From: Pirellulales bacterium
Lineage (GTDB): Bacteria > Planctomycetota > Planctomycetia > Pirellulales > UBA1268
DNA: 64,000 nt
NCBI GenBank assembly: GCA_017853835.1
Contig: JAFMIU010000002.1
Span: 44,755-108,754 of the forward strand
Direction of reading: 5' to 3'
A program made the position numbers and the translations under genes. Shown piece by piece: positions 6,904 to 29,794 of this stretch (position 1 is the first letter of the stretch; the number at the start of each line of letters is the position of its first letter). Under the pieces are notes generated by a model that worked only from the letters and a program-made list of their open reading frames with translations, did not search any database and was not told the DNA's origin.

Positions 6904-7219
6904 ACCGCTTCCCTGCGAACGCCGTTTTCTGCCGTTTTCAGCCTTCTTTTGGCCTCGAAACGCCCTCTTGGTCGGGGCCACCCTGGCGGGAGTGGAGACC
7001 CCCTAACGCCTAGAATCCGCCCGCGCTCGTCTCGTTCAAAAATACGGGCAACTAACGCTTGAAAGCCGGATAAGTCTACGTAACCTATCTATCTTACCAG
7101 GCGGCCGAGTGGTTCGGTCGTCGGAAGAGATGGGCCTCTTCAAACGACCGACGTTCGGGCGTGTTCGAGACAAGCCTGCTCGTTTTTCACCTGTGTTCCT
7201 TTTTCTTTTGGAGGTTTGC

Positions 7220-8914
7220 GTGATTCGCAAAATTCTGACCTGCCTCCTGCCGGCAGTTGCCGTCGTCGCCCTGTGCTCCAGCACATGGGCTGCCGACTGC
7301 GCCTGCGGCAGTGGCGAAGGCACCGTTGTCAGCAACGGTGCGTGTGGTAACTGTGCCGGTTCGTGCGGCACCAAGACGGTGTACCAGCGGCAGTATGTGA
7401 CCGAGATGAAGACGGTCACCTGCACCGAGTACAAGAATGAAACACGTGAACGGACCTACACGGTCACCAAGCGTGTTCCGCGGACCGAGGAGCGGACTCG
7501 CACCGTCACCGTGTGCGTGCCCGAAACCCGGACCAAGACCGTGAACTACACGGTCAACAAGAACGTCACGGAGACCAAGACGGCCGAATACACCGTCCAG
7601 GTCCCCTACACCGAAGAGGTCGAGCAGACCTACACGGTCATGGTGCCCGTCTCGGAAGAGAAGACCGCCACCTACACGGTGATGGTCCCCTACACCGAGG
7701 AAGTGGAGCAGTCCTACACGGTCATGGTGCCCGTCTCGGAAGAGAAGACCGCCACCTACACGGTGAAGGTCCCCTACACCGAGCAGGTCGAGCAGGCCTA
7801 CACGGTCATGGTGCCCGTCTCGGAAGAGAAGACCGCCACCTACACGGTGATGGTCCCCTACACCGAGGAGAAGACGCAGACCTACACGGTGAAGGTTCCC
7901 TACACCGAGCAGGTCGAGCAGAAGTACATGGTCAACGTCCCCTACACCGAGCAGGTCACCTCGACCCGCAAGGTGCAGAAGCGCGTTGCGGTCCAGGGCA
8001 CCAAGACGGTGCAGGTCCGTGGTGGCCACTGGGAGACGCAGCAGGTCGAGGTCGCCGGCGGCACCGACGCCTGCGGCTGCCCCTGCCCCCCGAAGACCTG
8101 CTGCAAGCGGGTCTGGGTGCCCACGTGTGAGACGAAGGAAGTTCCCGTCACCACCTACGAGTGCGTGACCGAGGAAGTTCCCTGCACCCACACGGTCACC
8201 AAGTGCCGTCAGGAAGAGCGGACCCGCACGGTGTGCGTGCAGAAGTGCCGTGATGAGGAGCGGACCCGCACCTACACGGTGTCGAAGTGCCGTCCCGAAG
8301 AGCGGACCCGCACCTACACCGTCACCAAGTGCGTGCCGGAGCAGCGGACCCGCAAGGTCTGCGTGCAGAAGTGCCGTGACGAGGAGCGGACCCGCACCTA
8401 CACGGTGACGAAGATGGTGAACGAGACCAAGACCCGCAAGGTCGCGGTCACGAAGTGCCGTCCCGAAGAGCGGACCCGCACCTACACCGTCACCAAGTGC
8501 GTGCCGGAGCAGCGGACTCGCAAGGTCAGCGTGCAGAAGTGCAAGACCGAGACTCGCACCCGCGAGTATCAGGTCACCAAGTGCGTGCCGGAAGCGATGA
8601 CGAAGGAAGTTTCCTACACGGTCATGGTTCCGCAGCAGAAGGAAGAGAAGTACACCGTGACGGTGTGCGACTGCGTGCCCGAGACCAAGACGCAGACCTA
8701 CACGGTTCGCGTGCCGGTCCAGGTCACGAAGGAAGTGCCCGTCAAGAAGTGCGTGCGGGTCGCCGTCGAGGTGCCCTGCGGCGGTTGCGGTGAGGCTTCG
8801 GCCTGCGGCAGCTGCGGTGATGCCTCGGCTTGCGGTTGCGAGTCGGGCGACGCCTGCAACTCGTGCGGAAGCCGCCGCCGTGGCTGTGGCTGCCGCCGTG
8901 GCTGTGGCTGCTGA
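7220..8914 (+). CDS. exported YTV-repeat, cysteine-rich repetitive protein
   Basis: ORF 7109..8914. GGAGG lies 6 nt upstream of an in-frame GTG at 7220, giving (M)IRKILTCLLPAVAVVALCSSTWA|ADCACG (signal peptide). The body is built of ~14-aa units with a YTV core (TYTVMVPYTEEVEQ / TYTVMVPVSEEKTA, then KCRPEERTRTYTVT KCVPEQRTRKVCVQ). Both termini are Cys/Gly-rich; the C-terminus is CGGCGEASACGSCGDASACGCESGDACNSCGSRRRGCGCRRGCGC. Confidence 0.85.
   Translation: MIRKILTCLLPAVAVVALCSSTWAADCACGSGEGTVVSNGACGNCAGSCGTKTVYQRQYVTEMKTVTCTEYKNETRERTYTVTKRVPRTEERTRTVTVCVPETRTKTVNYTVNKNVTETKTAEYTVQVPYTEEVEQTYTVMVPVSEEKTATYTVMVPYTEEVEQSYTVMVPVSEEKTATYTVKVPYTEQVEQAYTVMVPVSEEKTATYTVMVPYTEEKTQTYTVKVPYTEQVEQKYMVNVPYTEQVTSTRKVQKRVAVQGTKTVQVRGGHWETQQVEVAGGTDACGCPCPPKTCCKRVWVPTCETKEVPVTTYECVTEEVPCTHTVTKCRQEERTRTVCVQKCRDEERTRTYTVSKCRPEERTRTYTVTKCVPEQRTRKVCVQKCRDEERTRTYTVTKMVNETKTRKVAVTKCRPEERTRTYTVTKCVPEQRTRKVSVQKCKTETRTREYQVTKCVPEAMTKEVSYTVMVPQQKEEKYTVTVCDCVPETKTQTYTVRVPVQVTKEVPVKKCVRVAVEVPCGGCGEASACGSCGDASACGCESGDACNSCGSRRRGCGCRRGCGC
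7589..7962 (+). repeat. coding tandem repeat, 42-nt unit organised as 84-nt higher-order unit (~4.5 copies)
   Basis: The string tacacggtcatggtgcccgtctcggaagagaagaccgccacctacacggtga recurs at 7631, 7715 and 7799 (period 84 nt). It encodes alternating YTVMVPVSEEKTAT / YTVMVPYTEEVEQx units. Confidence 0.9.
8190..8600 (+). repeat. coding tandem repeat, 42-nt Cys-containing unit with 126/168-nt higher-order copies
   Basis: gaagtgccgtcccgaagagcggacccgcacctacaccgtcaccaagtgcgtgccggagcagcggac occurs at 8284 and again at 8452 (offset 168). gcgtgcagaagtgccgtga(t/c)gaggagcggacccgcacctacacggtg occurs at ~8235 and ~8361 (offset 126). Boundaries are approximate. Confidence 0.85.
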
Positions 8915-9063: not shown

Positions 9064-10287
9064 CTACCAGCGGGACTCGAGACCGAGGTTCGCCCCGTGC
9101 AGGAACATACCGCCGGCGCCGCGAACCCCCGTGCCACTGGTGCCGGTGTCGGTGAAATCAAACTGGTTGGGCGCGAGTGCCACCCCCGATAGCCACGCGA
9201 GGTTGTAGCCGATCCTCAGGCCCCAGGTTTCGCTGAAGCGGTAGGCGAGCGTGAGATTCATCGTCGAGAGAAATCCCATGCCAGTGTCGATGGCCGAGCG
9301 ACCTGGGCGATATTCGTGGCTGCCGCCGTAGATGCTCGTAATCGGGGGAGACGACTGCTCGAGCCATGCGCCCCCAAGACCGGCTTTGAGGAAGCCCTCG
9401 AGCGATAATCGATCCCAGGTGCGTCGGCCACGCACGCCAAGCTGCGCCCCGAAGAGGTTCGAACTTGTCGTCACCTGGTAGCGATCGGCCGGGCCGCCTG
9501 AAAATGGATTCACCAACAGGGCTGCCTGCTCATCGAGTCCGGCCCAGAAGAGTCCGCCGATCCAGTCCAGTTCCGTGTCGTGGCGGCATCGTCGCTGGGG
9601 CCACGGCGAGCACGGCTCGCAGCCGCTCGAGAAGTCGCTCGACAGAAGGTTCAGCTCCGCAACGTTCAGGCTCGACCACCATGCTCCGCGGATCGTGTCG
9701 GCAGAGCTCCACCGGGGCACGCCTTTCCCGAGGTTGCCCGGCACGGCGAGTCCGTTTGCCGCATCGGCACGGGCATCGCCATACCAACCGTACACGCCCC
9801 AGTAGCCGACCTCCCACCCCAGTCCGTCGCACCCGTGACGCCCGGCAAACAGCCTGACGCCGGGCGCCGTTGTGGGCGTCATGCTTCGTGTCGTGAGCAC
9901 GGTGGCCCCGGGCCGTGAACCGTTGGGGTTCTCAACGGCGATGGGCTGGTTGTTCGTGGCGTTGTCACGATCGAGAAAGAGCACATCGAAGACGACGTAG
10001 TCGCGATCCACCACGCGTGATCGACCGCATGACGTGCACCCTGGTCGACATCCCTCGTGAGCCATCATCTCGGGGGCCGGCGACTCGCCCATGGCCATCG
10101 GCTCGTCGATAACGATCGACGCATCGCCTCCAGACGACTCCGGCACCCCGTCGACCGACGTCGGATCCGATGCGGCCAGCGTCGGCTCAGCCGCACCGAT
10201 CACAAGCGGTTCACCGACGAACTCCTGGGCGGCAGCGGCAGCCATCGCCACCGCCACCATCGCCACACCAAGGCCCACTCGCTTCAT
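9064..10287 (-). CDS. outer-membrane beta-barrel protein, BBP7-like
   Basis: ORF 9064..10341, with the likely ATG at 10287 (MKRVGLGVAMVAVAMAAAAAQE signal). Features: an acidic/Pro-rich N-terminal region, alternating amphipathic strands rich in G/W/Y (GWEVGYWGVYGWYG, LTLAYRFSETWGLRIGYNLAWL), and a C-terminal aromatic residue (...LGLESRW). The family name is recalled from PGAP-style annotation and was not searched. Confidence 0.65.
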   Translation of the reverse strand: MKRVGLGVAMVAVAMAAAAAQEFVGEPLVIGAAEPTLAASDPTSVDGVPESSGGDASIVIDEPMAMGESPAPEMMAHEGCRPGCTSCGRSRVVDRDYVVFDVLFLDRDNATNNQPIAVENPNGSRPGATVLTTRSMTPTTAPGVRLFAGRHGCDGLGWEVGYWGVYGWYGDARADAANGLAVPGNLGKGVPRWSSADTIRGAWWSSLNVAELNLLSSDFSSGCEPCSPWPQRRCRHDTELDWIGGLFWAGLDEQAALLVNPFSGGPADRYQVTTSSNLFGAQLGVRGRRTWDRLSLEGFLKAGLGGAWLEQSSPPITSIYGGSHEYRPGRSAIDTGMGFLSTMNLTLAYRFSETWGLRIGYNLAWLSGVALAPNQFDFTDTGTSGTGVRGAGGMFLHGANLGLESRW

Positions 10288-10554
10288 CTGCACGGCCCCC
10301 CGGCCCTCGAGCCCCCAACCCGTGGAAGGCGATCCTTCCACCCCGGAGGGAGCGATCGGTTTTTTTCGTCACGAGCATGAGAATCGTTGCATCCCGCACA
10401 AACGGCTCCGGAGCACGGGTAAAGTGCGTCGACTCTGCGGCCTTCGCCCGCGTGTCGCCCGCTGGTGGCGGGATGCCTCCCAAAACGCTAGGCTCTCATC
10501 CTCGGCAGCCGTTTTTATTTGCGCCGTTTCACCCTCTTGCCAGAGCGAGTTTCC

Positions 10555-10911
10555 ATGGACCAGTTCCGCCGCATCCAAACCGGAAAGAAGGGCGACATCC
10601 ACCTCGTGCTCTTCAAGGACAAAAAAATTCTCGACGACACGGTCCTCGACGAGATCCGCACGGAAATCACCCAGCTCATCGGCAAGGCTTCGGGGCCGGA
10701 CGTGCTTCTCGACTTCTCGAACGTCGAGTTCATGTCGAGTGCCATGCTGGGCCTCCTCGGCCAGCTTCACCGCAAGATCTCGACGGGCCACGGCCGCTTG
10801 AAGATGTGTGGCATCCGCCCGGAAATCCTCACCGTTTTCAAGATCACCAACCTCGACAAGCTCTTCAGCATCCACAAGGATGCCCCCACGGCGCTGGCGA
10901 CCTTCACCTGA
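10555..10911 (+). CDS. STAS-domain anti-sigma-factor antagonist (SpoIIAA/RsbV-like)
   Basis: ORF 10519..10911, ATG at 10555. Typical STAS layout: IHLVLFKDKKILDD...VLLDFSNVEFMSSAMLGLLGQL...RLKMCGIRPEILTVFKITNLDKLFSI. A serine is retained at the position equivalent to the phospho-Ser of SpoIIAA (FMDSSG vs FMSSAM). Confidence 0.85.
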   Translation: MDQFRRIQTGKKGDIHLVLFKDKKILDDTVLDEIRTEITQLIGKASGPDVLLDFSNVEFMSSAMLGLLGQLHRKISTGHGRLKMCGIRPEILTVFKITNLDKLFSIHKDAPTALATFT

Positions 10912-10925
10912 CGGCGGAGCCGGTC

Positions 10926-12347
10926 GTGGCTGCACCATCCTCCGCACCATCTCCTGCCGCGACCGCGGGCGTCGATGTCGTCATCGCGGAAGACAGCCGC
11001 ATCCAGGCGAGGATGCTGCAGAAGCGGCTGACCGAAGCCGGCCATACGGTGCGCTGGGGTGAAAACGGCGCCCTCGCCCTCGCCCTTGTCAAGGAGCGAC
11101 GGCCCGACGTCATCATCTCCGACATCGAGATGCCGGAAATGACCGGCTACGAGTTCTGCAAGGCGGTGAAGACCGACGCCGCCCTGAAGACCATCCCATT
11201 GATCCTGCTGTCGACGCTCTCCGACCCCATCGACATCATCCGGGGGCTCGACGCCGGAGCCGACAACTACGTCACCAAGCCCTACGACCCTGACTACCTC
11301 CTCGGCCGAATGGCCTCGCTCCTGGCCACGCCGATCGACAGCGGCGATGACGTCGGATCGCTGCTCGAGGTCACCCTCGCGGGTCAGACCTTCCGCGTCA
11401 AGGCGGGGCGGCAGCAGGTGCTGAACCTGCTCGTCTCGACATTCGAAAACGCCGTCGCCAAAAACCAGGAACTCGTCGTCGCCAACCAGGAGCTCTCGGT
11501 CGCCCGCGACGACCTTCAAAAGTCCAACGATGAGCTCACCTCGCTCAACGCGGAGGTCACTCGGATCAACGCCCAGATGGTTCGAGACCTCAAGGCCGCC
11601 GCCAAGGTGCAACGGTCGCTGCTCCCGGCCGACGATGTGACGATCCCGGGATCGAACGTCGCCTGGCGGTACGTGCCCTGCCATAATCTCGCGGGCGACT
11701 TTCTCAACATCTTCCCGCTCGATGACGAGCATGCCGGCCTGTTTGTTGTCGACGTGAGCGGTCATGGCGTTCCGTCGTCGCTCATGGCCGTCACGGTGGG
11801 GCGTTTTTTGACGCCGAAGGTTTCTGACTCGTCGATCCTCGTGCGGCAGGGTGCCGACGGCCGTGTCGTGGTCACAAGGCCGGCCGAGGTCGCCACGCAG
11901 CTCAACCGGATCTTCCAGGCCGACGAGTTTTCGGGTCTCTATTTCACACTGCTCTACGGCGTGCTCCACCTCCCTACAGGTCGGTTTGATTACTGCTCCG
12001 GCGGCCATCCACCGCTGGTTCGCATTCCGGCGACAGGAGGGGCCGTGGAGTTTCATCCGATGGAGAGTTTCCCGATCGCCTTCGTGCCGGAGGTGGAATA
12101 CGAGCAGCGATCGCTTCAGCTCGCTCCGGGCGATCGCCTCGTGCTCTACTCCGACGGTGTTCCCGAGGCCATGAACCAGGAACGGAATCCGTATGGCGAC
12201 GAGGCCATGGCCGCCTGCCTGGATCGATCGCGCGGTGCCCCGCTCGATGTATGTGTCGGAGGGCTCCTCGAGGCTGTCGAGGCGTGGTGCGTGCCCAATG
12301 GCCCACTCGACGACGTGTCGATCCTCAGCCTGGAGTGGCGCCCGTAG
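10926..12347 (+). CDS. response regulator fused to PP2C (SpoIIE/RsbU-type) serine phosphatase
   Basis: The real gene is the 3' two-thirds of ORF 10170..12347. An in-frame GTG at 10926 lies 15 nt after the STAS stop. REC domain: VVIAEDSRIQ...RPDVIISDIEMPEMTGYEF...LILLSTLSD...NYVTKPYD (Asp present). A coiled-coil linker follows. PP2C motifs: LAGDFLNIF, LFVVDVSGHGVPSSL, LVLYSDGVPEA, DDVSILSLEW. Confidence 0.85.
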   Translation: MAAPSSAPSPAATAGVDVVIAEDSRIQARMLQKRLTEAGHTVRWGENGALALALVKERRPDVIISDIEMPEMTGYEFCKAVKTDAALKTIPLILLSTLSDPIDIIRGLDAGADNYVTKPYDPDYLLGRMASLLATPIDSGDDVGSLLEVTLAGQTFRVKAGRQQVLNLLVSTFENAVAKNQELVVANQELSVARDDLQKSNDELTSLNAEVTRINAQMVRDLKAAAKVQRSLLPADDVTIPGSNVAWRYVPCHNLAGDFLNIFPLDDEHAGLFVVDVSGHGVPSSLMAVTVGRFLTPKVSDSSILVRQGADGRVVVTRPAEVATQLNRIFQADEFSGLYFTLLYGVLHLPTGRFDYCSGGHPPLVRIPATGGAVEFHPMESFPIAFVPEVEYEQRSLQLAPGDRLVLYSDGVPEAMNQERNPYGDEAMAACLDRSRGAPLDVCVGGLLEAVEAWCVPNGPLDDVSILSLEWRP

Positions 12348-12357
12348 GGCGATTCGC

Positions 12358-13188
12358 TCACCGTCGTGGCTTCGGCACGTAGTAGCTGCAGCCGTGCGTC
12401 ACAACGCGATCCCACCCCCCGTCGTCGATCCCGATCATCGTCTCGGCCCCGCCCAGAAAGAGCGCGCCGTCCGGTCGGAGAATCCGCCGCACCCTTCCGA
12501 CGAGAGCCGCTCGTGTCGGCACGTCGAAATAGAGCATCACGTTGCGAAGAAACACCACGTCGACGATCGGCATCATCGGCCAGGTGCCGTTGAGATTCAT
12601 GGTTCGAAACTCGACGAGCTGTCGGCACTCCTGCACGATGCTCCACCGCCCCTGGAGCGGTCGAAAGAATCGGCGGAGCACGGCAGGGGCGATCCCGCGG
12701 TTCGTCTCGAGCTCGCTGTAAATGCCTTCACGAGCCCGCGCCAGAATCGGGTCTGAGTAGTCGGTGGCGATGATTCGAATCCGCCACGTGGCCAACACAT
12801 CACGAAAATGCTCGGCCAGGGTCATGGCGATGCTAAAAGGCTCCTGCCCGGTGGAGCACGCCGCCGACCAAAACGTCAACTGGCGTTCCGCGGACCGACG
12901 TTCTATGAGCCCGCCGATCACTTCGCGGAGCGCTTCAAACGGCGCCCGATCGCGGAAGAACGACGTCTCGTGCGTCATCATCGCGCAGAGCACATCCTTT
13001 TCGAGCGTCGGATCGACCCCCTGCCGCACCCGGTCGATCAGGGTTTCGAGGCTCGGAATCTTTCGCTGCCTCACGATCGGCATGAGCCGGGCGACCACCA
13101 GATACTGCTTGCTTTCGTCGATGCACACGCCGGTGCGGCGCCGCAGCAGGCCGCAGAGATACTCGTACTGCGGATCTGCGACCTTCAT
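12358..13188 (-). CDS. cheR: chemotaxis protein methyltransferase CheR
   Basis: 276-aa ORF. N-terminal helical CheR domain (YLVVARLMPIVRQ) plus a SAM-dependent methyltransferase domain (THETSFFRD, FWSAACSTGQEPFSIAM, DVVFLRNVMLYFD). Confidence 0.92.
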   Translation of the reverse strand: MKVADPQYEYLCGLLRRRTGVCIDESKQYLVVARLMPIVRQRKIPSLETLIDRVRQGVDPTLEKDVLCAMMTHETSFFRDRAPFEALREVIGGLIERRSAERQLTFWSAACSTGQEPFSIAMTLAEHFRDVLATWRIRIIATDYSDPILARAREGIYSELETNRGIAPAVLRRFFRPLQGRWSIVQECRQLVEFRTMNLNGTWPMMPIVDVVFLRNVMLYFDVPTRAALVGRVRRILRPDGALFLGGAETMIGIDDGGWDRVVTHGCSYYVPKPRR

Positions 13189-13211
13189 GGATCGTCCGTG
13201 TCGACGCGGCC

Positions 13212-14717
13212 TCAGCCGCCCCGCCTCTGGAGTCGCAGGCCAATCTCCACGCCGATCTGCGACAGCGGCAGCACGGCATCGGCCAGGCCCGCCCGCACGA
13301 CTTCGCCTGGCATGCCCCAGACGACACTCGAAAACTCATCCTGGGCGATCACGCTTCCTCCGGCGGCCACGATCGCCTTGGCGCCGGCAAGACCGTCGCG
13401 TCCCATGCCGGTGAGCACCACGCCCAACGTCGCCCCGCCCCACACCCGAACCGCCGAGCGAAACAGCACGTCGGCTGCCGGACGGCATGAGTTTTCGGGA
13501 GGTGCGTCGGTGAGCCGAACCCTGGGCTGCGCCGCGTCACCCGCCACCTCGAAATGCCGGCCGCCTGGCGCCAGCAGCACCGACCCCGCCTGGAGCGGTG
13601 CTCCGTCGACGGCCTCCGACACCGGTAGTCCAAACGATTTCGCGAGCCGCTCGGCGAGGTGTGCGGTGAAGAACGCCGGCATGTGCTGCACGACGAGCAC
13701 CGGCACACGGGCCTCGGGGACGAATGCGGGAAGCACCTCGGCGAGGGCCGTCGGCCCTCCCGTCGACACCGCGACGACCACGGCCTGAATGCGCTCCTGA
13801 CGAACCGCCGTGCGGGCAAGGGGTGCCGCGCCGGCCGCGCGAGGATCCGCCGAGCGGGACAGCCGTGGGTGGCCGACCGTGCCGCGGGGCACGAGCGACT
13901 TGATCCGTCCGATCACGTCGGTGCGAATTCGTTCGGCCACCTCGCTGGCATCGAGTCCGGCCGGCTTGGCCACGTAATCGTTGGCCCCGGCCAAAAGCGC
14001 CTCGACCGTGGCCTTCGCCCCGCGTTCCGTGAGGCTCGAAAACATCATGACGGGCAGTTTGCCGAAACGACGGCGAATCTCCTTGAGCGCCGTGAGGCCG
14101 TCCATCACGGGCATCTCGACGTCGAGTAGCACGAGATCGGGTGCCGTCGCAGCAATCGCGTCGAGGCAGGCCGATCCGTTGATCGCCGTGCCCACCACCT
14201 TGATGTCGGGATCAGCAGCGAGCGTCGCCGAAAGGATGCCTCGAATGGTGGCTGAGTCATCGCAGATGAGCACCCCGATCGGTCCACGGCCACCCAGGGC
14301 CACCTGGCCGTCGTCGAGCACGCCCAGGTCGACGAGCTTCCGGGCGAGGGCGGAGGCGGTGAAGGGCTTGGCGAGGTACTCGTTGATCCCGGCCTGTCGC
14401 GCCAGCGCAATTCGATCCTGCTCATGCTCCGTCGAGATCATCAGGATCGGCAGGGAACGGTAGCCCGGGTGTTGGCGGAGCCGTCGCACCAGTTCGATCC
14501 CGTCCATCACCGGCATGTGCCAGTTCACGGTGATCACGTCGGGACGCTCGGTGGCCAGGGCCTCGAGCGCCTCGGCGCCGTTCGCCGCCTCGGTGCACGC
14601 AAAACTCAGCTCCTGCAGCGCCCGGGCGACGATGCTTCTGGCCGGTTTCGAGTCGTCAACGACGAGCGCCCGCACGATCGGGATCCTCCTTGCCCTCACC
14701 AGCCAAATGGCCGGCAT
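13212..14717 (-). CDS. cheB: protein-glutamate methylesterase CheB with two N-terminal receiver domains (first is a pseudo-receiver)
   Basis: 501-aa ORF starting 9 nt after the MCP stop. REC1 is ALVVDDSKP...PDVITVNWHMPVMDG...ILMISTE...EYLAKPF, with Asn (codon 14523-14525) where the phospho-Asp is expected. REC2 is VLICDDSATIR...DLVLLDVEMPVMDG...DYVAKP (canonical). The CheB methylesterase domain shows VVVAVSTGGPTAL, VLVVQHMPAFFT and VLTGMGRDG. Confidence 0.9.
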   Translation of the reverse strand: MPAIWLVRARRIPIVRALVVDDSKPARSIVARALQELSFACTEAANGAEALEALATERPDVITVNWHMPVMDGIELVRRLRQHPGYRSLPILMISTEHEQDRIALARQAGINEYLAKPFTASALARKLVDLGVLDDGQVALGGRGPIGVLICDDSATIRGILSATLAADPDIKVVGTAINGSACLDAIAATAPDLVLLDVEMPVMDGLTALKEIRRRFGKLPVMMFSSLTERGAKATVEALLAGANDYVAKPAGLDASEVAERIRTDVIGRIKSLVPRGTVGHPRLSRSADPRAAGAAPLARTAVRQERIQAVVVAVSTGGPTALAEVLPAFVPEARVPVLVVQHMPAFFTAHLAERLAKSFGLPVSEAVDGAPLQAGSVLLAPGGRHFEVAGDAAQPRVRLTDAPPENSCRPAADVLFRSAVRVWGGATLGVVLTGMGRDGLAGAKAIVAAGGSVIAQDEFSSVVWGMPGEVVRAGLADAVLPLSQIGVEIGLRLQRRGG

Positions 14718-14726
14718 TCATGCAGC

Positions 14727-16868
14727 CTAACTCTTCTTGTATTCCTCCACGAGGCGCTGCAGTGCCTGGGCCATCCGCGAGAGTTCCTGCGACGACATCT
14801 GCGTGTTGGCAGCCCCCTCGGCCGTGCTCTGGGCCGCCTGAGCGACCTGCACGATGTTCTCCGCAATCTCCGAGGAGCCGGTGGTGGCCTCTCCAATGTT
14901 GCGGCTGATCTCGCCGGTCGTCACCGACTGCTCCTCGACGGCGGCGGCGATCTTCGTCTGGAGACTGTCGATCTGCTCGATCACCTTGCCGATTTCAGCG
15001 ATGGCGTCGACGGCCCGCTTTGTATCGGCCTGCATCGACTCGATCCTGCCGCCGATCTCCTCGGTGGCCTTCGCCGTGTCGCGGGCGAGCTCCTTGACCT
15101 CGCTCGCCACCACCGCGAAGCCCTTCCCCGCTTCTCCGGCACGGGCGGCCTCGATCGTGGCATTGAGCGCCAGGAGATTCGTCTGTTCGGCGATCGAGGT
15201 GATCACCTTGATCACCGCACCGATCTCATTGCTCGACCGGCCGAGCGCGTCCATCGTGGACGACGTCGCCGACGCCATGTCCACGGCCCGACGGGCGGTC
15301 GTGGCGGCGTCCTGGGAACTCCTCGCGATTTCATGGATGCTGGCCACGAGGTTGTCGATGGAGCCAGACACCGTTCGGGCGTTGCCGCTCACCTGTTCCG
15401 CCGCGGCCGACACGAGGTTGGCCTGGGCGGTCGTCTGCTCGGCGGCGGCGCTCATCTGCTGACTGACGCTGGTGAGTTCCTCCGAGGCGCTTGCGAGGGC
15501 ATGGGTATTGTCGACGATGCCACCGACGAGCGTGGCCTGCCGTTGGGCTTCACGGGTCAGCCGTCGGGCGATCAGCGTCGAGACCACGAGCACCGCAGCG
15601 GCGGTGAGGCCGAACACCGTCAGCCCCACCCGAAGCAGACGATGCACGGGCGCAAACACCTCCGCGGTGTCGATTTCGGAGATCAGCGCCCATCGAATGT
15701 CCGGATGACTTCCGGATGGGTCGTGGAACACGGTGACCGGACGCCACGCCACCAGCGACTGCCGGCCCTGGTAGTCCTTCATCTCGGCGACCCCGGCCTT
15801 GCCATCGTCGAGGGCGCTCCGGACGGCCTCGGTGTCGACCTTCAGATCGGAGTTGATGATCGTGGTTTTGACGCCGAGTTCCTTGACGAATCGCGAGTTG
15901 CTTCGGAACAGACGGTCGGGACCGATGGCGTAGGTCTCGCCGGTGTCGCCCATGCCGGTCGTTTCGCCGATGATGTCGTCGGCCTTGTCGATGGGAACCT
16001 GGAAGACGACCACGCCGATCACCCGACGCCCGTCGAACATGGGCGCCGCGATGAAGCTGGCCGGCTCGTTGTACGACGGCAGGTACCTCGCAAAGGGGCC
16101 GTAGCCCATGGCGTCACGTCGTCCGGCGGCCACAGCCTGATGGAAGGCGAGCCCGAGGCTCGACGACGCCAACGGTCCCTCACGGAGCGAGGCCCCCAGG
16201 TCGGCCTCCTTGCACACGCTATACACCACCGCCCCACTCTGTGCGTCGACGAGGAAGGCGTCGTAGAGCCCGTATTTCTCGACCAGGCTTCGGAAAAAGG
16301 GGTGGAAGGTCGCGTGGGCCTTCGTGTAGGCCGAGGCATCGTCCGCCGCGTCGAGCGCCGCCTTCGTGCCAAGCGGGTTGTCGTTGCGACGGATGTAGAG
16401 GTATTGGAGATAGGCCGCGTCATCATCGAGGGAGTCGCAGAGCACCTTCACATCGCCTACGTCACCCGAGCGACGGCGAAACTCCGCCGAAAACTCGCCG
16501 GTATAAAACGTCTCGAGGTCACGCCGGGCGTCGGCCAACCTCTGGTCATTCACCCCGTCGTCGGTTCGAATCGACTGAAGTCCCGTGCGGAGCTTGTCGA
16601 GTGCCTCGCGGGCGACGCGACCCTCGGCCAGCACCGCCAGTTCCTGACGGAGCGTTCGAAAATAACGCTCCACCGACTTTGCCGTCACGGCGTTGACCGT
16701 GTCGAGTTGCTTGAGTGCCTGCTCGCGGATCGCCGATGACGAGGCGCGGTAGCTCGTCGTGCCCATGAAGGCCATCGGCACGAGCGACACCCCGAGGAGG
16801 GCAAGGAGGAGCGGATTGGTGAGAAACGAACGCCAGCCGGCACCGGCCGTGTGATCACGATCAGCCAT
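14727..16868 (-). CDS. methyl-accepting chemotaxis protein with large periplasmic Cache-like sensor
   Basis: 713 aa. TM1 is [20 protein letters not shown]. It is followed by a ~370-aa extracytoplasmic region with Cache-like strands ([37 protein letters not shown]), then TM2. The MCP signalling hairpin is [35 protein letters not shown]. The start overlaps the cheW stop by 8 nt. Confidence 0.9.
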
Positions 16869-17367
16869 GATGAACTCCCTGCCTCTCGGAAAATGGCGGC
16901 CGTGGCCGCACGAGTGAATGAATCATGCGTTGGGGATCGAGCAGGTGCACGAGCCGGTCGGGCGCCGCAAAAACACCTGCCAGAGCCTCCCCGGAGCCCT
17001 CAGAAAGCGATGATGTCGAGGGATCGATGTGGTCTTCCGAAATCTCGACGACGTCGAGCATCTCGTCGATCAGGAGCCCGTACCAGTCGTCCTGAAGAGC
17101 GATCACCAGGTGCGTGGCCCGGTCCCTCGCTCCACTGGCAAGGCCCAGTCGCACTCCGGGATCGATGACGGGAACGATGCGTCCACGGAGGTGCAGCAGC
17201 CCGAGCACCCCCTCTGGCGCCAGAGGCACGGTCGTGAGCCGTCCGCCGCGAAGCACCTCGACGACGCCGTCCGCCGGAACGGCGAAACACGCATCCCCCA
17301 GGCGGAAGGCGCAGTATCGATGGGCAACGGGAGTCGGTGCAGGAGCTCGACGATCCGTGACGTTCAT
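16861..17367 (-). CDS. cheW: chemotaxis coupling protein CheW
   Basis: 168 aa. CheW fold pattern: [22 protein letters not shown]...[23 protein letters not shown]...[28 protein letters not shown] overlap with the cheA stop. Confidence 0.9.
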
Positions 17368-19682
17368 CGGTGCCCCTCGACAATGGCATGGTTTCGCATG
17401 GCACCGAGGTCGACCACTTCCGTCGCCATCCCCCCGAGCGCGAGCATGCCCGCCAGGCCTGCCATGCCGGCAGGCTGCAGCGGTGACTCAGCAACCAGCA
17501 CGTCGAGGATGCTGTCGACCGCAAGTCCAAGGCAGCCACTGTCGGCCGACACCACCACCACGTTCACGTTCGTGGGCAAGGTCACCGACGGGCTGCCAAG
17601 CATCGCATCGATGTCGGCCAGCGGGGTAAAGGCGTCGCCACGCCGAACGACCCGCCGGCGACCGACCTCTTGCACGTCCTGCCGCGCATAACGCTCCAGC
17701 CGCACGACGTCGGCCAGCGGAACGGCGACCCGTCTGCCCGCCGGCGTGCCGCACACGAGGTAGCGATCGGCGAGTTCGGCAGTAGGCACCGCCGGCGCAT
17801 CGGGTTCGTGATCAACGGGAGGAAGCTTGGCCAGCCGCTGGAGTCCACGGAGATCGAGAATCAGCACCACGCCTCCGTCGCCCAGCACCGTTGCTCCCGA
17901 ATAGAGGCCGAGCCCGGCCAGCAACGCTCCGATCGGTTTGACGACGATGGTCGACAGGCTGGCGGAATCAAGGAGTTCACGGCACCGCAGGTGACCACCG
18001 GCTGATCGCATCCCATCGACGACGAGGCCAAACTCACGATCGTCGACCCTCACCAGCACCACGGTGCCGTCCTCGCGGCAGGCGGTCTGGTCCCGTACAC
18101 CAAGAAACTGATCGAGGAACACGATCGGCACCAGGCGGCCACGAACCCGCATCACGGGGGCGTCGTGTAGCCCTTCGATCCGTGGACCGGATCGATCCTT
18201 GGCCAGCGGAACGAGCTCCCCCACGGCCGACTGAGGAATCGCGAACCGTTCCGTGCCGCAGCGCACGACGAGCGCCGGCATGATGGCCAGCGTGAGCGGC
18301 ACGTGCACGCAGACCGTGGTGCCAGCCCCGGGAGCGCTGTGGATGTCGACGGTTCCCCCGATCGCCTCGATGTTGGTGCGCACGACGTCCATCCCCACGC
18401 CACGCCCCGACACACTCGTCACCTGGGCGGCCGTCGAGAACCCCGGCTCAAAGATGAACTGCAAGACGCGATCGGGGGGCATCGATGCCGCGTCGGCCGC
18501 TGAGACGAGGCCTCGCGTCACGGCCTTCTCCCGAACCTTTTCGAACGCGATGCCGGCCCCATCGTCCGACACCTCGATCGTCACCCGGCCGCTTTCGTTG
18601 AACGCACGGAGCGACAGCCGCCCGGCGCGGGGTTTGCCCTTGGCCACGCGCTCAGCCGGTGGTTCGATGCCGTGGTCAACCGCGTTGCGAAGCAGGTGCG
18701 TGAGCGGGTCACGGATGCTCTCGATGAGCGATCGGTCAAGCTCGGTGTCGGCCCCGTCGATGACGAGCTGCACCTCCTTCCCGCACGACACGGCCAGGTC
18801 TCGGACCGTGCGCGGAAACCGGCTGAAGACGTGCTCCACCGGCTGGAGTCGCGTTTTGACCGCGGTTTCCTGCAGGGCGTTGGTGACGGCGTTGATCCGT
18901 TGGCTGCAGGCCTGCACGGCCGGATCATCGCTATCGATGCTTCGCAGCTGGTTTCGGGCAAGCACGAGTTCGCCCACCAGATCGAGAATCGACGCGAGGA
19001 GATCCACGTCGACTCTCACGCTCGACTCCGCCGCCGTCACGCCCGCTGCCGCCACTCCCGTCGTGGCAACGGAGGAAACTGGTTCGGGGGAGGGCGTCGC
19101 GGGGGTCGCAGTCACCGCCGCCGCAGGAGTCGGCCCATCCTCAGGCTTTTCACCGGCGGCTGGGATGCCCGTGCTCGGCGTCGACTCCGTCGTCGATGGC
19201 GATGGTGCTGGCGCCGGGGCGGCGTTCGCGGCCACCGGACTTGCCTGTGTCGCCTTCGACTCGTCGGGCCCAACCGCACCAGGCAGCGTCGATTCCGCCT
19301 GTTCGGCAGCTGCGGTCAGCGACCTGGAGAGCTCCCGGTAGTCCTGATCACCCTCGCCACCGGTCGCTTCGATGGAGCGGAGAATCGCACGAACGGCATC
19401 GACCATCGTGTAGAGCGTGCCGGCGATCCGGTCGTCCAGCCGTAGCCGGCCGTCACGAAGCTTCCCAAGCAGGTGCTCACCACTGTGGGCGAGCGCCCCA
19501 AGCTTCGAAAAGCCAAAGAAGCCGCTGTTGCCCTTGATCGTATGAACCGTGCGGAAAACACTCGCCAGTCGCGGCGCATCCGCGGGATCCGCCTCGAGCG
19601 CAAGAAGGTCCTTGTCGAGCTGATCGAGGTTTTCACTCGACTCGACAAGAAACTCTTCGATGAACTCGCGGTTGTCAGACAT
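17364..19682 (-). CDS. cheA: chemotaxis histidine kinase CheA with two C-terminal CheW-like domains
   Basis: ORF 17364..19808, with the likely ATG at 19682 (MSDNREFIEEFLVESSENLDQL). HPt domain with FRTVHTIKGNSGFFG. Pro/Ala-rich linker and dimerisation region. HATPase motifs: HLLRNAVDHGIE, DDGAGI, GRGVGMDVV. Two consecutive CheW-like segments follow (ALVVRCGTERFAIPQSAV... and RYLVCGTPAGRRVAVPLADVV...). Confidence 0.9.
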   Translation of the reverse strand: MSDNREFIEEFLVESSENLDQLDKDLLALEADPADAPRLASVFRTVHTIKGNSGFFGFSKLGALAHSGEHLLGKLRDGRLRLDDRIAGTLYTMVDAVRAILRSIEATGGEGDQDYRELSRSLTAAAEQAESTLPGAVGPDESKATQASPVAANAAPAPAPSPSTTESTPSTGIPAAGEKPEDGPTPAAAVTATPATPSPEPVSSVATTGVAAAGVTAAESSVRVDVDLLASILDLVGELVLARNQLRSIDSDDPAVQACSQRINAVTNALQETAVKTRLQPVEHVFSRFPRTVRDLAVSCGKEVQLVIDGADTELDRSLIESIRDPLTHLLRNAVDHGIEPPAERVAKGKPRAGRLSLRAFNESGRVTIEVSDDGAGIAFEKVREKAVTRGLVSAADAASMPPDRVLQFIFEPGFSTAAQVTSVSGRGVGMDVVRTNIEAIGGTVDIHSAPGAGTTVCVHVPLTLAIMPALVVRCGTERFAIPQSAVGELVPLAKDRSGPRIEGLHDAPVMRVRGRLVPIVFLDQFLGVRDQTACREDGTVVLVRVDDREFGLVVDGMRSAGGHLRCRELLDSASLSTIVVKPIGALLAGLGLYSGATVLGDGGVVLILDLRGLQRLAKLPPVDHEPDAPAVPTAELADRYLVCGTPAGRRVAVPLADVVRLERYARQDVQEVGRRRVVRRGDAFTPLADIDAMLGSPSVTLPTNVNVVVVSADSGCLGLAVDSILDVLVAESPLQPAGMAGLAGMLALGGMATEVVDLGAMRNHAIVEGHR

Positions 19683-19889
19683 CCGGAAATCGAACCAGAT
19701 CAGGCCCGAGGAAAGATGAGGGGCTGGGCGAAAGGATTCCGACTGCGCAAGGTTTGCCGGCAGCCTTGCGGTAAGCATACCCCGTGAAATGCGGCCGATC
19801 TCGGGCATGGAACGACGGCCCTTTCGACCCTCACAGGCCGTACAGCCGGCCCCCAGATCGCCCCAGGCCCTTCGATCGGGACGGCTCGC

Positions 19890-21134
19890 TCAGGATGCGG
19901 TCGACGCCCGTTGGTCGATGGCGTCGTCCATGAGGGGCCAGAGCGCGTCGATATCGCCCTTGAAGATGTCGCCGATCAGGATGTCCGTGATCAGCGGTTT
20001 GGCATCGCCGTGTCGTCGCACGAGCTGGCCGAAGTTGAGGCCGTCATAAAACCCGCACACGAGCTTCCGCATCCGGTCGAGACCAGCCGTGTAGCCGGGT
20101 CCCCACGAACCCAGCCTCGCCTCCGAGGTGTCGTGGCAGTCGAGCCCCTCGGCGATCGCGTCCGCGGCCAGCGCCCCGCTCTTGAGCGCGAGAAGAATCC
20201 CCGAGGAATAGAGCGGGTCGAGGAATCCAAAGGCATCGCCCACGAGCACCCAACCATCGCCCGCCACCTGAGAAGCCCGGTAGGAATACTCCTTTGCGGC
20301 GCGGTAGGGAGCCACGCGTTCCGCCGACGTCAGGCGGGGCTGCACGCCCGGACATCGTGCCATTTCATCGCGATAAATCGCCTCGAGATCCTTTGAATCG
20401 CGGTTCTTGAAAAGATGGTCGAACGGCGCCACGACACCGACGCTGACGAGATCATCCTGGAGCGGGATGTACCAGAACCATCCCACCTTGCCCTGCGTTT
20501 GCATCACGAGCGTGGCGCCGGCGTCGAGACCGGGCTCCCGTTGCCCCCCCTTCCAGTAGGTCCAGATGGCGGCCTTCTTGAGCACGGGGTCCCACTGCCT
20601 GAGCCCCAGACGATCGAGAATGATCCCGCTCTGCCCTGCCGCATCGACGACGACGTCGCATCGCACCTCGCTCTCCACGCCATCTTCATCCAGGGTGCGA
20701 ACTCCGACCGCCCGCCGTCCCTCGAACAGCACGTCGAGCACGCGCACGCCCTCTCTGACATCAACGCCGTGCGACCGGGCGTTGTCGAGCATCATCTGAT
20801 CGAACTCCTGGCGGGTGACCTGCCAGGTGCGAGAACTCTCGTGCGGTTTGTAATCCGCAAAGTAAAACGGCTCGGAAACACGCCCCTGCTCCGACACGAA
20901 CTGCACGCTGTGCTTCTCGACGAACGGCCCCCCCCGAAGCCTCGGGAGCATTCCAAGCCGCTCCAGCACCCAGAACGTTTCTGGAATCAGCGACTCCCCG
21001 ACGTGGTAGCGAGGAAAACGGTCCCGCTCGAACAGCCGGACGGTCCGACCGTGCTGGGCGACAAGGGTGGCGGTTGTCGCGCCGGCGGGCCCACCCCCGA
21101 TCACGACCACTTCTGGATTTCCAGCGTCCACCAT
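19890..21134 (-). CDS. FAD-dependent oxidoreductase with flavin-dependent-halogenase signature motifs
   Basis: 414 aa. The N-terminal VVVIGGGPAGATTA is a GxGxxG dinucleotide fold. HVGESLIPE follows, and KVGWFWYIPL matches the WxWxIP motif of flavin-dependent halogenases. The C-terminal GDAFGFLDPLYSSGI is an FAD-binding GD motif. Confidence 0.8.
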   Translation of the reverse strand: MVDAGNPEVVVIGGGPAGATTATLVAQHGRTVRLFERDRFPRYHVGESLIPETFWVLERLGMLPRLRGGPFVEKHSVQFVSEQGRVSEPFYFADYKPHESSRTWQVTRQEFDQMMLDNARSHGVDVREGVRVLDVLFEGRRAVGVRTLDEDGVESEVRCDVVVDAAGQSGIILDRLGLRQWDPVLKKAAIWTYWKGGQREPGLDAGATLVMQTQGKVGWFWYIPLQDDLVSVGVVAPFDHLFKNRDSKDLEAIYRDEMARCPGVQPRLTSAERVAPYRAAKEYSYRASQVAGDGWVLVGDAFGFLDPLYSSGILLALKSGALAADAIAEGLDCHDTSEARLGSWGPGYTAGLDRMRKLVCGFYDGLNFGQLVRRHGDAKPLITDILIGDIFKGDIDALWPLMDDAIDQRASTAS

Positions 21135-28300: not shown

Positions 28301-28819
28301 GTCGATGAGTCGTGCGCCAAGCTCGACACGCTGCTCGAACAGCTCGAGGAGGTGCTCGCCGAGGGCCACAAGGCCCTGGTCTTCAGCCAGTTCACGAGCT
28401 TCCTTTCCATTCTCCGACGACGGCTCGACGAGAAGGGGACGGTCTACGAGTACCTCGACGGCCGCACCACCGACCGCCAGGCGAGGGTGGCACGTTTCCA
28501 GGAGGATGCCGACTGCAAGCTCTTCCTCGTCAGTCTCAAGGCAGGTGGACAGGGCCTCAACCTCACCGCGGCCGACTACATCTACATCCTCGACCCGTGG
28601 TGGAATCCCGCCGTCGAGGCACAGGCCGTCGACCGCGCCCACCGCATCGGCCAGACCAGGCCGGTGTTTGCCTACCGCCTCATCGCCCGCGATACGGTGG
28701 AGGAGAAGATCGTGGCCCTTCAAGACCGCAAGCGCGATCTCGCCGAGTCGATCGTACGGGCCGACGAGAGCATGATTGCGAGCCTGACGCCGGAAGACGT
28801 CGAGCTGCTGTTGTCGTGA
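25337..28819 (+). CDS. SNF2-family (Swi2/Snf2) helicase-like ATPase with long uncharacterised N-terminal region
   Basis: ORF 25268 (GTG)..28819, with the first ATG at 25337 (MKTLEQRL). The C-terminal ~500 aa carry the SNF2 motifs: LRHYQREGLGWL, LADDMGLGKTIQ, VVLDEAQSIKN, LTGTPVENHIGELWS, SLKAGGQGLNLTAADYIYILDPWWNPAVEAQAVDRAHRIGQ. The start choice is uncertain. Confidence 0.88.
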   Translation: MKTLEQRLFHLFPPADVAKARSLTPASVACPRVGHVRATVIGDDGEEHEVELELSAHRRGGMTLETRCSTPAGRAGRPCAVLASVLLEIDRRRLLSGIRDQTPVTLDIVAEEPDEATAYEEEPVEEDSSGQEPDAEAEPSGWTPPASVRRPSQRLPAWASELEERRRLVEPAVRSHGISIPDQRRTGGALVFLLDLTASSDARAAVIVPARMQLDVAGNATGRPRPITIGPEEVEFSHLDAQERSLVERLVGASAAGATMLPEPVDRRTIARIVVSPRSAATHLAHLCETGRLVVQPEPRRDPERVIPLTWDSGQPWEFAFVVEPDDDDLRPSRGGDDDAPPAKPAKATLRGMLVRGSQRKDLSEPRAILRAGLVVFADRIARLKDAGADGTAAVSSAWLEQFERRGPIEVASSQIDGLVERLALLADVPRLVLPAWTGWRIESGAPSPKLVLDDSPAVSLDADGSGSRKRQPKVQLAGKVWFDYAGIVIAADDPAGGAADSSRRVFVRRDRAIEQEALALLPKHGALAARGLALDGSAATHHVEIARNRLDSSVSQLASVGWFVEVAGRRYRPAGSVAWNVTSGIDWFELSAAIDFGGVTAELPALLEAIARGGRAVELSDGSIGILPDSFARDLEPMMALAQKHDGKLRYGRIQMALLDALLAGQPQSAVDEAFERLREQLAAGEQPEAEPEPQGFHGTLRHYQREGLGWLVFLERCGLGGCLADDMGLGKTIQVLALLARRQAEIKAAGIPHRPSLVIVPRSLVFNWLDEARKFAPQLRVVNHTGTTRADETGSISDWDIVVTTYGTLRRDIMTHRETEFDYVVLDEAQSIKNAASQAAKACRLLRARHRLALTGTPVENHIGELWSIFEFLNPGQLGSASRLRKFLADGRGSAEIVARAVRPYLLRRTKSQVLSDLPEKTEQTLFVELGETQRKAYDELREHFRAELAGRIGRMGIGRSRIAVLEALLRLRQTACHAGLVDHSRVDESCAKLDTLLEQLEEVLAEGHKALVFSQFTSFLSILRRRLDEKGTVYEYLDGRTTDRQARVARFQEDADCKLFLVSLKAGGQGLNLTAADYIYILDPWWNPAVEAQAVDRAHRIGQTRPVFAYRLIARDTVEEKIVALQDRKRDLAESIVRADESMIASLTPEDVELLLS

Positions 28820-28898
28820 CCCCGAACGGGGGCGGTTGCCCGTGAGGCCGCCGCCTCACACAATCCTCATGTTCGGATCGGAAACTTCTGTCCGAATC

Positions 28899-29663
28899 AT
28901 GCCCACGACGTCCCTGATCCTGTCCTGCGCGGAGCCTTACCCCGTGCCCACGAAAACCCGCGGGCCCCAGGAGCCCATCCGTCCGAGGGTCCTCGTTGTC
29001 GACGACGAGGAGGATCTCCTCGAACTCGTCCGCTACAACCTCACGAAGGACGGCTACGACGTCGAGTGCGTCGGCACCGGCGAGCAGGCACTCGCCAGCG
29101 CACGGGCAAATCCGCCCGACCTCATCGTGCTCGACCTGATGCTTCCCGCCGTCGATGGGCTCGAGGTCTGCCGTCGTCTCAAGGCCGACCCAAAAACTCG
29201 TGACATTCTGATCGTGATGCTCACCGCGAAGAGCGAGGAGCGCGACATGATCACCGGACTCGAACGTGGCGCCGACGACTACATCGCCAAGCCCTTCAGC
29301 CCTCGCATCCTTTCGGCTCGCGTGAAGGCGATGCTGCGTCGGGAGGAGGCCCATCGCCGCGACGAACAGGAAACCACGATCGACGTGCATGAGTTGTCGA
29401 TCCACCCCGGCCGCCACGAGGTGATGCTGGCAGGCGAGCCGGTTGACCTGACCTACACGGAGTTTGCCCTGCTCCATTTCCTGGCCAAGCGGCCAGGCTG
29501 GGCCTACACCCGCACCCAGATCGTCGATGCGGTCAAAGGTTCGGACTACCCCGTGACCGAGCGATCCGTCGACGTGCAGGTGGCCGGACTCCGCCGCAAA
29601 CTCGGCGACTTTGGCCACTACGTCGAAACCGTTCGGGGCGTTGGCTACCGCCTCCGCAAGTGA
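28899..29663 (+). CDS. OmpR/PhoB-family response regulator
   Basis: ORF 28836..29663, with three candidate ATGs (28836, 28869, 28899). REC domain: RVLVVDDEEDL...DLIVLDLMLPAVDG...IVMLTAKSEE...DYIAKPF. Winged-helix domain: LTYTEFALLHFLAKRPG...VDVQVAGLRRKL...VETVRGVGYRL. Confidence 0.9.
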   Translation: MPTTSLILSCAEPYPVPTKTRGPQEPIRPRVLVVDDEEDLLELVRYNLTKDGYDVECVGTGEQALASARANPPDLIVLDLMLPAVDGLEVCRRLKADPKTRDILIVMLTAKSEERDMITGLERGADDYIAKPFSPRILSARVKAMLRREEAHRRDEQETTIDVHELSIHPGRHEVMLAGEPVDLTYTEFALLHFLAKRPGWAYTRTQIVDAVKGSDYPVTERSVDVQVAGLRRKLGDFGHYVETVRGVGYRLRK

Positions 29664-29794
29664 ACGGCGGCGCTTTGCCGCAACGCGGCCAACGTGCGAC
29701 ACTCACGTCGATCCCGCGGGAGGTCCCCATCCACGTCGATGCGTGGTGAGTCGATCTGTCCGGGAGCTCCATCATCCTCCCGCTGTCGCCCGCC

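Follow-up and report, generated by a model that had tools for sequence, protein, structure and literature searches.

What output does a chemosensory operon serve when neither a stand-alone CheY nor a flagellar gene lies near it? The question is raised by a cheA-cheW-mcp-cheB-cheR operon in a 64,000-nucleotide stretch of a Pirellulales bacterium genome (assembly GCA_017853835.1, contig JAFMIU010000002.1; hereafter the window, with a G + C content of about 65% throughout). This operon runs tail to tail into a two-gene unit encoding a STAS protein and a response regulator in which a receiver (REC) domain is joined to a PP2C-type serine phosphatase. The original prediction, made from the sequence alone, was that CheA phosphorylates the REC-PP2C protein, so that a ligand sensed by the receptor is converted into STAS dephosphorylation. 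We favour, at a probability of roughly 0.58, a reading in which the operon is a complete Che module whose output is the adjacent REC-PP2C protein with its STAS partner and not a flagellar CheY. The genes of the two units are the following.

10555-10911, plus strand: single-domain STAS protein, SpoIIAA/RsbV-like, 118 aa (Pfam STAS, E=1e-11)
10926-12347, plus strand: REC-PP2C response-regulator phosphatase, 473 aa, GTG start after GGAG (Pfam Response_reg and SpoIIE, E=4e-38 and 2e-24)
12358-13188, minus strand: cheR, receptor methyltransferase, 276 aa (Pfam CheR_N and CheR, E=6e-51)
13212-14675 (likely; the longest open reading frame extends to ATG 14717), minus strand: cheB, REC-REC-CheB_methylest (Pfam, two Response_reg and CheB_methylest, E=5e-59)
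14727-16868, minus strand: mcp, transmembrane dCache chemoreceptor, 713 aa (Pfam MCPsignal, E=2e-34; dCache_1, 47.5 bits against a cut-off of 45)
16861-17367, minus strand: cheW, coupling protein, 168 aa (Pfam CheW, E=3e-27)
17364-19682, minus strand: cheA, 772 aa (Pfam Hpt, H-kinase_dim, HATPase_c and two CheW)

Every gene that had been named for positions 10555-19682 was confirmed by Pfam, and the family assignments for the Che core genes (Hpt, dimerisation, HATPase, CheW and MCP signal) were all above the curated cut-offs. Translation of cheA from ATG 19682 gives a typical N-terminus (MSDNREF...), and the gene overlaps cheW by 4 nt (ATGA), as cheW overlaps mcp by 8 nt. Both overlaps had been put forward as signs of tight operon coupling and are present, but the 9-nt gap claimed between mcp and cheB is not: cheB very probably starts at GTG 14675, which makes this gap 51 nt. 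The GTG is preferred because an AAGGAGG Shine-Dalgarno sequence lies 9 nt upstream of it, the 487-aa gene call for cheB on an identical contig has the same start, and orthologues begin with MRAL..., in line with it. The automated longest-frame coordinates (13212-14717) overstate CheB by 14 residues. cheB and cheR are separated by 23 nt, and STAS and REC-PP2C by 14 nt. The plus-strand pair converges on the che operon with 10 nt between the PP2C and cheR stop codons, exactly as predicted.

All core components of a chemosensory array are encoded, namely a CheA with Hpt, dimerisation, HATPase and CheW-like P5 domains, a CheW, and a receptor with an MCP signalling domain. CheA comprises an Hpt/P1 domain (His47 in HTIKG), P3, P4, P5 and a second, C-terminal CheW-like domain. 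The Pfam and receiver hidden Markov model (HMM) scans found neither a P2 nor a receiver domain in it, and the place of P2 is taken by a low-complexity linker of about 100 residues rich in Ala, Pro and Thr. The receptor has two predicted transmembrane segments and a periplasmic dCache_1 domain, and has no HAMP domain by Pfam. Its signalling hairpin carries a conserved tip sequence around Glu579, with arms of 142 and 134 residues. These lengths fit classes 36H-38H and exclude 40H and 44H in alignments to Tsr, Tar and TM1143; the heptad class is given as this range, by arm length, as MAFFT placed non-symmetric 7-residue indels. Adaptation enzymes are also encoded: CheR and CheB both have their catalytic motifs, and the receptor contains methylation-type EE/EQ motifs (SEEL, AAEQ and VEEQ). 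In pairwise identity, a small-panel proxy for class, the Che proteins of the window were no closer to the F7 proteins of E. coli than to those of other systems.

CheB carries two receivers ahead of its methylesterase domain, in which the motifs STGGP, QHMP and GMGRDG are kept and invariant. The inner receiver (REC2) retains the acceptor Asp in LLDVEMP (Asp199, numbered from ATG 14717). The outer one (REC1) has Asn at the phospho-Asp position (TVNWHMP), and the DD, Thr and Lys positions of a receiver are retained around it. In a PDB search with REC1 the top 49 matches were all CheY (E~3e-21), with NWHMP aligned to the DWNMP that contains D57 of E. coli CheY. The Asn was invariant across the clade, in 14 genomes, at column N51 of the CheB alignment and in seven further metagenome loci. 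REC1 thus lacks the phospho-acceptor Asp of a CheY-like receiver, and because that residue is an invariant Asn, we conclude from the sequence that REC1 is a CheY-derived pseudo-receiver, predicted not to be phosphorylatable. The original prediction overlooked this domain: by homology, the cluster is not devoid of CheY and has CheY ancestry in the form of a pseudo-receiver fused to CheB. The clade-defining CheY(Asp-to-Asn)-CheB fusion is previously unreported. More speculatively, its role is probably one of docking or regulation, in which it may tether or control CheB at the P2-less CheA.

The plus-strand pair has the residues expected of an RsbU/RsbV-type phosphatase and its STAS partner. In the REC-PP2C protein, Response_reg covers residues 18-127 and SpoIIE residues 267-472, the latter matching positions 2-192 of the 192-position profile. 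The protein ends at residue 473 with the PP2C domain, and Pfam found no HATPase (kinase) domain in it. Among 13 homologues of 74-100% identity, the receiver residues D23, D66 (the acceptor), T97 and K118 are invariant, as are the PP2C motifs DVSGHG, SDG and DDV (D276, D410, D462 and D463); the metal-binding Asp motifs are therefore kept, as had been claimed. The best solved homologue was RssB of Pseudomonas aeruginosa (3eq2/3f7a, E=6e-33). An AlphaFold2 model from the 13-sequence alignment was of low confidence (mean predicted local distance difference test score 58.8, predicted template modelling score 0.39) and was used for secondary structure alone; in it a helical linker of about 70 residues (helix 162-232) joins the receiver and PP2C domains. 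In the STAS protein, Ser62 (FMSSAMLG) aligns with the phospho-Ser of SpoIIAA (1th8_B) and the MSS motif that contains it is invariant in 25 orthologues, which upholds the claim that a Ser is kept at the phospho-site. STAS is the most conserved protein at the locus, with 81-97% identity at relatives' loci where PP2C has 74-83%; where STAS reached 97%, PP2C reached 83% and CheW 71%.

We then asked which receivers other than those of CheB and REC-PP2C the operon could address within the window. About 55 plausible open reading frames were scanned by Pfam, and a receiver HMM was run over all six frames. No flagellar gene, no stand-alone CheY and no CheZ, CheC, CheX, CheD or CheV was detected in the 64 kb, in agreement with the original prediction. 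The six-frame search returned only four receivers: two in CheB, one in REC-PP2C and one of OmpR type (28788-29660). As the OmpR-type pair lies 9 kb from cheA, CheB and REC-PP2C are the only receivers near the che operon, and neither a phosphorylatable CheY nor flagellar genes, the marks of a flagellar-type pathway, occur within the 64 kb. No RsbW-like HATPase_c_2 kinase and no sigma factor was found among the scanned window frames, consistent with the earlier statement that the switch kinase (RsbW/SpoIIAB-like) is not in the window; the annotated neighbourhoods of two related loci (L002 and L086) likewise contained no HATPase_c_2 protein or sigma factor.

The association of the phosphatase with che genes was examined by scanning one genome per species for full-length REC-PP2C orthologues (54-83% identity) and mapping the window proteins onto the loci recovered. 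Thirty-one species-level loci were obtained, all from metagenome-assembled genomes (MAGs) of Planctomycetota. Seven of the 31 contigs were too short to be informative, and che genes lay beside REC-PP2C in 20 of the remaining 24. In window-type loci the layout is convergent, and STAS is always directly upstream of REC-PP2C in this clade. One locus (L022:9007-9867) has a tandem pair of STAS paralogues upstream of REC-PP2C, with 44% and 61% identity to the window STAS. In a Rubripirellula MAG (L029) the genes run cheA-cheW-mcp-cheB-cheR-RECPP2C on one strand, with a 4-nt overlap between cheR and the phosphatase gene. A third arrangement (L034) comprises cheW, an mcp encoding a PAS-PAS-HAMP receptor, cheR, a cheA with P2, a gene of no assigned function, cheY, cheB and REC-PP2C, the last three being joined by 4-nt overlaps. 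The same order, with cheD added, occurs on a 7.5-Mb contig (L086), whose Che proteins are closer to those of E. coli than to those of the window and whose receptor has a C-arm of exactly 126 residues, the 36H length. Given the Aer2-like receptor, the 36H C-arm of L086 and the similarity of L086 to E. coli Che proteins, clusters of this kind are classed here as F7-like. Since the orthologue sits in both window-type and F7-like clusters, the phosphatase appears to accompany two different Che system types. Between cheA and cheD or cheY, both of these loci contain a conserved gene whose product, about 213-236 aa long, matched no Pfam family (L086:7333-7974 and L034:7231-7941). In another locus (L036:9400-11402) the cheB and REC-PP2C matches are frame-split into two high-scoring segment pairs each, which suggests assembly-error frameshifts or pseudogenisation.

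A more remote case was found in a Phycisphaerae MAG (L039), where a REC-PP2C protein 29% identical to that of the window is convergent with cheR-cheB-mcp-cheW-cheA. Its CheA is a CheA-receiver hybrid with a doubled CheW-like domain like that of the window, and the first gene of the operon (L039:9150-9953, minus strand, contig DATKKX010000161.1) encodes a 267-aa Hpt-STAS_2 fusion. The locus resembles a relay of the HptB-HsbR-HsbA kind that has been incorporated in a Che cluster and, judged by its domains, connects proteins of STAS type with Che phosphorelays in another class of Planctomycetota. The STAS part of the fusion has no obvious phospho-Ser. A Bacillota locus (L037) was rejected as a che-linked relative: it is Wsp-like, and the matching protein consists of a receiver and a histidine-kinase-type ATPase with no PP2C domain.

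Because the linkage is kept in 20 of 24 loci and through three gene arrangements, the view that the che operon and REC-PP2C form a conserved functional unit is well supported, and their adjacency does not appear to be due to chance.

A reverse scan of metagenome contigs was made with the CheB alignment, a query blind to the phosphatase. Distant CheY-CheB fusions, present at about 30 loci with 36-47% identity, have the canonical DWNMP intact and lie in cheA-cheW-cheYB-cheR clusters, and no orthologous phosphatase or STAS gene was present in any of the 17 Asp-type loci with at least 2.5 kb of sequence beyond cheR. The close CheB clade (at least 55% identity) has the Asn acceptor and a dCache mcp, and a convergent REC-PP2C in three of its four informative loci. 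The Asp-to-Asn change in CheB REC1 thus co-occurs with phosphatase linkage (3/4 Asn-type against 0/17 Asp-type loci). Asp-type fusions (L093-L146; e.g. L097, L116 and L137) are widespread; in the stretches covered, their clusters have no stand-alone cheY, and cheW is not separated from cheB by a receptor gene. One Asp-type cluster is followed, 1.5 kb beyond cheR, by a gene with a PP2C domain (L100:5060-5710). This gene was rejected as an orthologue, being 27% identical over the PP2C part only and having no matching receiver; it may represent an independent Che-phosphatase association.

Linkage of che, STAS and phosphatase genes has been described outside the Planctomycetota. The ancestral F7 "stage 1/2" clusters of gammaproteobacteria are defined by STAS genes and a serine phosphatase (Ortega et al. 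2020, PMC7184735), the che1 locus of Shewanella includes crsR and crsA (PMC9855816), and the che2 cluster of Vibrio vulnificus encodes RsbU and RsbV (PMC10107281). The original prediction cited CrsR/CrsA and HsbR/HsbA as background and did not note that homologues of CrsR/CrsA and RsbU/RsbV are encoded within F7 (Aer2-type) che clusters of Shewanella, Vibrio and Pseudomonas (PMC7184735, PMC9855816, PMC10107281). It also held the pathway to be essentially uncharacterised in Planctomycetota; full-text literature searches indeed returned no paper on such a che/REC-PP2C/STAS system in this phylum, but the novelty was overstated, as the design is not new in kind and its linkage is already published for gammaproteobacteria.

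The window shares with the Aer2-type F7 clusters (V. cholerae cluster III, V. vulnificus che2, P. aeruginosa Che2 and S. oneidensis Che1) the linkage of che genes, STAS and a receiver-bearing serine phosphatase, and a non-motility or stress-related role with a putative output is proposed for both. It has the STAS-phosphatase adjacency of stage 1/2 clusters and lacks their aer2-like PAS-HAMP 36H receptor, cheY and cheD; these features are present instead in the related Pirellulaceae loci L034 and L086, which have a PAS receptor (36H C-arm measured in L086), CheY, CheB and REC-PP2C, with CheD in L086 only. Compared with F7, the window occurs in a different phylum, its receptor is a transmembrane dCache protein without HAMP whereas Aer2 is a soluble PAS-HAMP protein, its CheA has two CheW-like domains and no P2, its CheB has the CheY-derived pseudo-receiver, and its Che proteins are less similar to the E. 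coli F7 proteins than are those of L086.

Among known phosphatases, RssB of P. aeruginosa (3eq2, 3f7a) likewise has a receiver joined by a helical linker to a PP2C phosphatase domain of the active type, and its gene shares an operon with the rsbV-like STAS gene rssC (PMC12143880). It differs in having no adjoining che operon, in its known role as an adaptor for RpoS degradation, and in its length (394 aa against 473 aa overall in the window, where the linker is longer); in the window the STAS gene comes first. CrsR and HsbR have the three-domain order REC-PP2C-HATPase, and the window protein is without their extra kinase domain. In the HptB-HsbR-HsbA system of P. aeruginosa (PMC5085249, PMC6482189) an Hpt protein phosphorylates the receiver-PP2C regulator that controls the phospho-state of STAS; its inputs are hybrid sensor kinases, whereas in the window the only Hpt is P1 of CheA and the STAS is a separate protein. 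In the RsbK-RsbY-RsbV system of Bacillus cereus (PMC4574943) the REC-PP2C protein RsbY, which acts on STAS, has a dedicated activating kinase, RsbK, which is in turn tuned by a CheR-like methyltransferase, RsbM. That system differs from the window in using a hybrid sensor kinase and not a receptor-CheW-CheA array, in encoding RsbW and SigB alongside, which the scanned window frames do not, and in having no CheB or MCP. Finally, Wsp-type systems, of the alternative cellular function kind, resemble the one proposed here in having a Che array that signals to a receiver-effector and not to a flagellar CheY, and KEGG-style annotation of related freshwater MAGs named such genes WspE/WspF (PMC6461901). 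The window has such a receiver-effector, but its proposed output is PP2C/STAS and not GGDEF, and its CheA is without the C-terminal receiver typical of WspE; the Phycisphaerae locus does have a CheA-REC hybrid.

In the favoured pathway, a periplasmic ligand would bind the dCache domain observed in the receptor, which would control CheA via CheW, as is known for the family. CheR and CheB, whose catalytic motifs are present, would adapt the receptor by methylation. Phosphorylated CheA-P1 would pass its phosphate to Asp199 of CheB REC2 for adaptation and to Asp66 of REC-PP2C for output; transfer to Asp66 is suggested by the conserved linkage and the lack of another acceptor. The phosphorylated receiver would then, on the model of RsbU/RssB-type dimers (PMC12143880), alter PP2C activity by way of the long helical linker, and the phosphatase would dephosphorylate Ser62 of STAS, a step to which the invariant Ser, the invariant catalytic Asp residues and co-transcription point. 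The partner of unphosphorylated STAS may be an RsbW-like kinase/anti-sigma factor or some other effector whose gene lies elsewhere, and binding to it may change gene expression or lifestyle. We infer the direct CheA-to-REC phosphotransfer and its sign, as well as the STAS kinase and the final target.

The case made for this pathway is one of gene neighbourhood and residue conservation throughout, and several observations weigh against it. The two units of the window are convergent and hence separate transcripts. REC-PP2C stands without che genes within 5-10 kb at four loci (L009, L015, L016 and L031), where unrelated genes follow, and a che operon of the window type (L090) has no PP2C or STAS gene within -5/+9 kb. 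A two-hybrid assay of CheA2 and RsbU of V. vulnificus detected no interaction (PMC10107281, data not shown there). With 64 kb of the genome in view, an orphan CheY may lie elsewhere. The same observations would fit two independent neighbours joined by inherited synteny, the che operon serving ordinary taxis through such an orphan CheY and STAS/REC-PP2C forming a separate switch fed by another histidine kinase; many Pirellulales do have flagellated swarmer cells and scattered motility genes. We nevertheless consider this unlikely, since the linkage recurs in three arrangements, with start/stop overlaps to cheR or cheB, with two Che system types and in a second class, Phycisphaerae, and since the CheY-like domain appears non-phosphorylatable and CheA has no P2. 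Outside Nemodlikiaceae, moreover, a flagellar apparatus was reported for just three MAGs, and all groups were reported to have "WspE-WspRF" (PMC6461901). One of our loci (L010) is ZE-3NOV15-plancto5, assigned by Andrei et al. to Vodnikaceae (PMC6461901), a group thus reported without flagella; this agrees with a non-flagellar role, on the basis of incomplete MAGs and of a relative of the window's genome.

Other objections concern the steps after the phosphatase. The expected conservation of the neighbourhood in relatives was borne out for che and PP2C and only in part for STAS, no STAS gene being found within 10 kb in eight more distant orthologous loci (L029-L036), which are either linked to che genes or stand by themselves, and no RsbW-like kinase was adjacent in any locus examined. 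The absence of such a kinase from the scanned window frames and from the related loci examined would fit a Che system that feeds a REC-PP2C protein acting, with STAS, as a proteolytic adaptor and so setting how stable a sigma factor or other regulator is, in the manner of RssB/RssC and not as an RsbW-type switch. The two-domain REC-linker-PP2C build without a kinase domain, the match to RssB as best solved homologue and the rsbV-like gene in the same operon, as for rssC (PMC12143880), would fit as well. Yet identity to RssB is low and limited to the generic REC and PP2C cores, and the invariant catalytic Asp residues together with Ser62 of STAS argue for a maintained phosphorylation cycle, so that we regard an adaptor role as improbable. 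A last possibility is that nothing is passed on: REC-PP2C may draw off phosphate from CheA as a sink, or its phosphatase activity may be turned back on the Che array itself, where STAS would modulate the receptor or the kinase. Systems that lack CheZ are known to use receivers as phosphate sinks, and no downstream target is visible near any locus. A STAS protein has also been proposed to affect chemoreceptor conformation in Campylobacterota (PMC9239204). In a pure sink, however, there would be no need for a PP2C domain that is conserved at 75-83% and keeps its catalytic residues, or for a STAS protein conserved at up to 97%, and no Ser/Thr kinase for Che proteins is encoded at the locus; we hold feedback of this kind to be very unlikely. 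The reading that we retain, then, is that of a Che module with REC-PP2C and STAS as its output.

The remaining features around the two units are as follows.

9064-10341, minus strand: BBP7-like putative outer-membrane beta-barrel protein, divergent from STAS (Pfam BBP7, 27 bits against a cut-off of 26)
10342-10554, intergenic: between the divergent BBP7-like gene and STAS, presumed promoter region of STAS/REC-PP2C
19683-19889, intergenic: 207 nt 5' of cheA, presumed promoter region of the che operon
19890-21134: FAD-dependent halogenase-like enzyme, the gene upstream of cheA
28836-31534: OmpR-type response regulator and HAMP-PAS histidine kinase, an ordinary two-component pair

Upstream of STAS, the BBP7-like gene and a gene for a YTV-repeat protein (7109-8914, plus strand) hold their positions in many relatives, with identities as low as 29-42%; the BBP7-like gene does so in L002, L006, L011, L012, L015-L017, L024 and L027, at 29-65% identity. 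Conserved synteny could account for this, or it could mark a regulated target, and their membership in the system is putative. The halogenase-like gene was rejected as a part of the system, being syntenic only in close relatives. The other scanned frames of the window encode housekeeping and transport functions (hemA, hemE, an SNF2 helicase, glutamine synthetase III, Fae and others). The Fae (formaldehyde-activating enzyme) gene (38136-38795, minus strand) fits the one-carbon-transfer genes known from Planctomycetota. Frames at 33980-36221 and large ones at 58274-63973 (minus strand; 362, 397, 362 and 871 aa) had no Pfam match.

A standing question is what che clusters of the Aer2/F7 type do with the RsbU/RsbV-like genes linked to them. 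The clusters of Vibrio, Pseudomonas and Shewanella also hold a CheY, which leaves the route from CheA to the phosphatase ambiguous there. The planctomycetal variant would remove this ambiguity, as its CheY-like domain is predicted to be non-phosphorylatable, its CheA has no P2, and CheB and REC-PP2C are the sole receivers in the neighbourhood; with no competing CheY receiver, it offers a clean natural system for asking whether an array directly drives a partner-switch phosphatase. A broader proposal, which we advance tentatively and think somewhat more likely to fail than to stand, is that of a lineage-wide CheY-less pathway in Planctomycetota of fresh water and the sea, most of them non-flagellated. 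CheA would there directly address only CheB and REC-PP2C and convert a periplasmic cue, with methylation adaptation, into the phospho-state of STAS. Recruitment of the phosphatase as output would have coincided with an invariant Asp-to-Asn change that made an ancestral CheY-CheB fusion into a docking or regulatory domain closed to phosphorylation. The Asp-to-Asn CheY-CheB fusion offers a natural case of a receiver turned pseudo-receiver. If the coupling holds, a regulator of stress or lifestyle would gain the sensitivity and adaptation of a chemotaxis-type array, and a role would be assigned to the che genes of planktonic Planctomycetota that have been reported without flagella.

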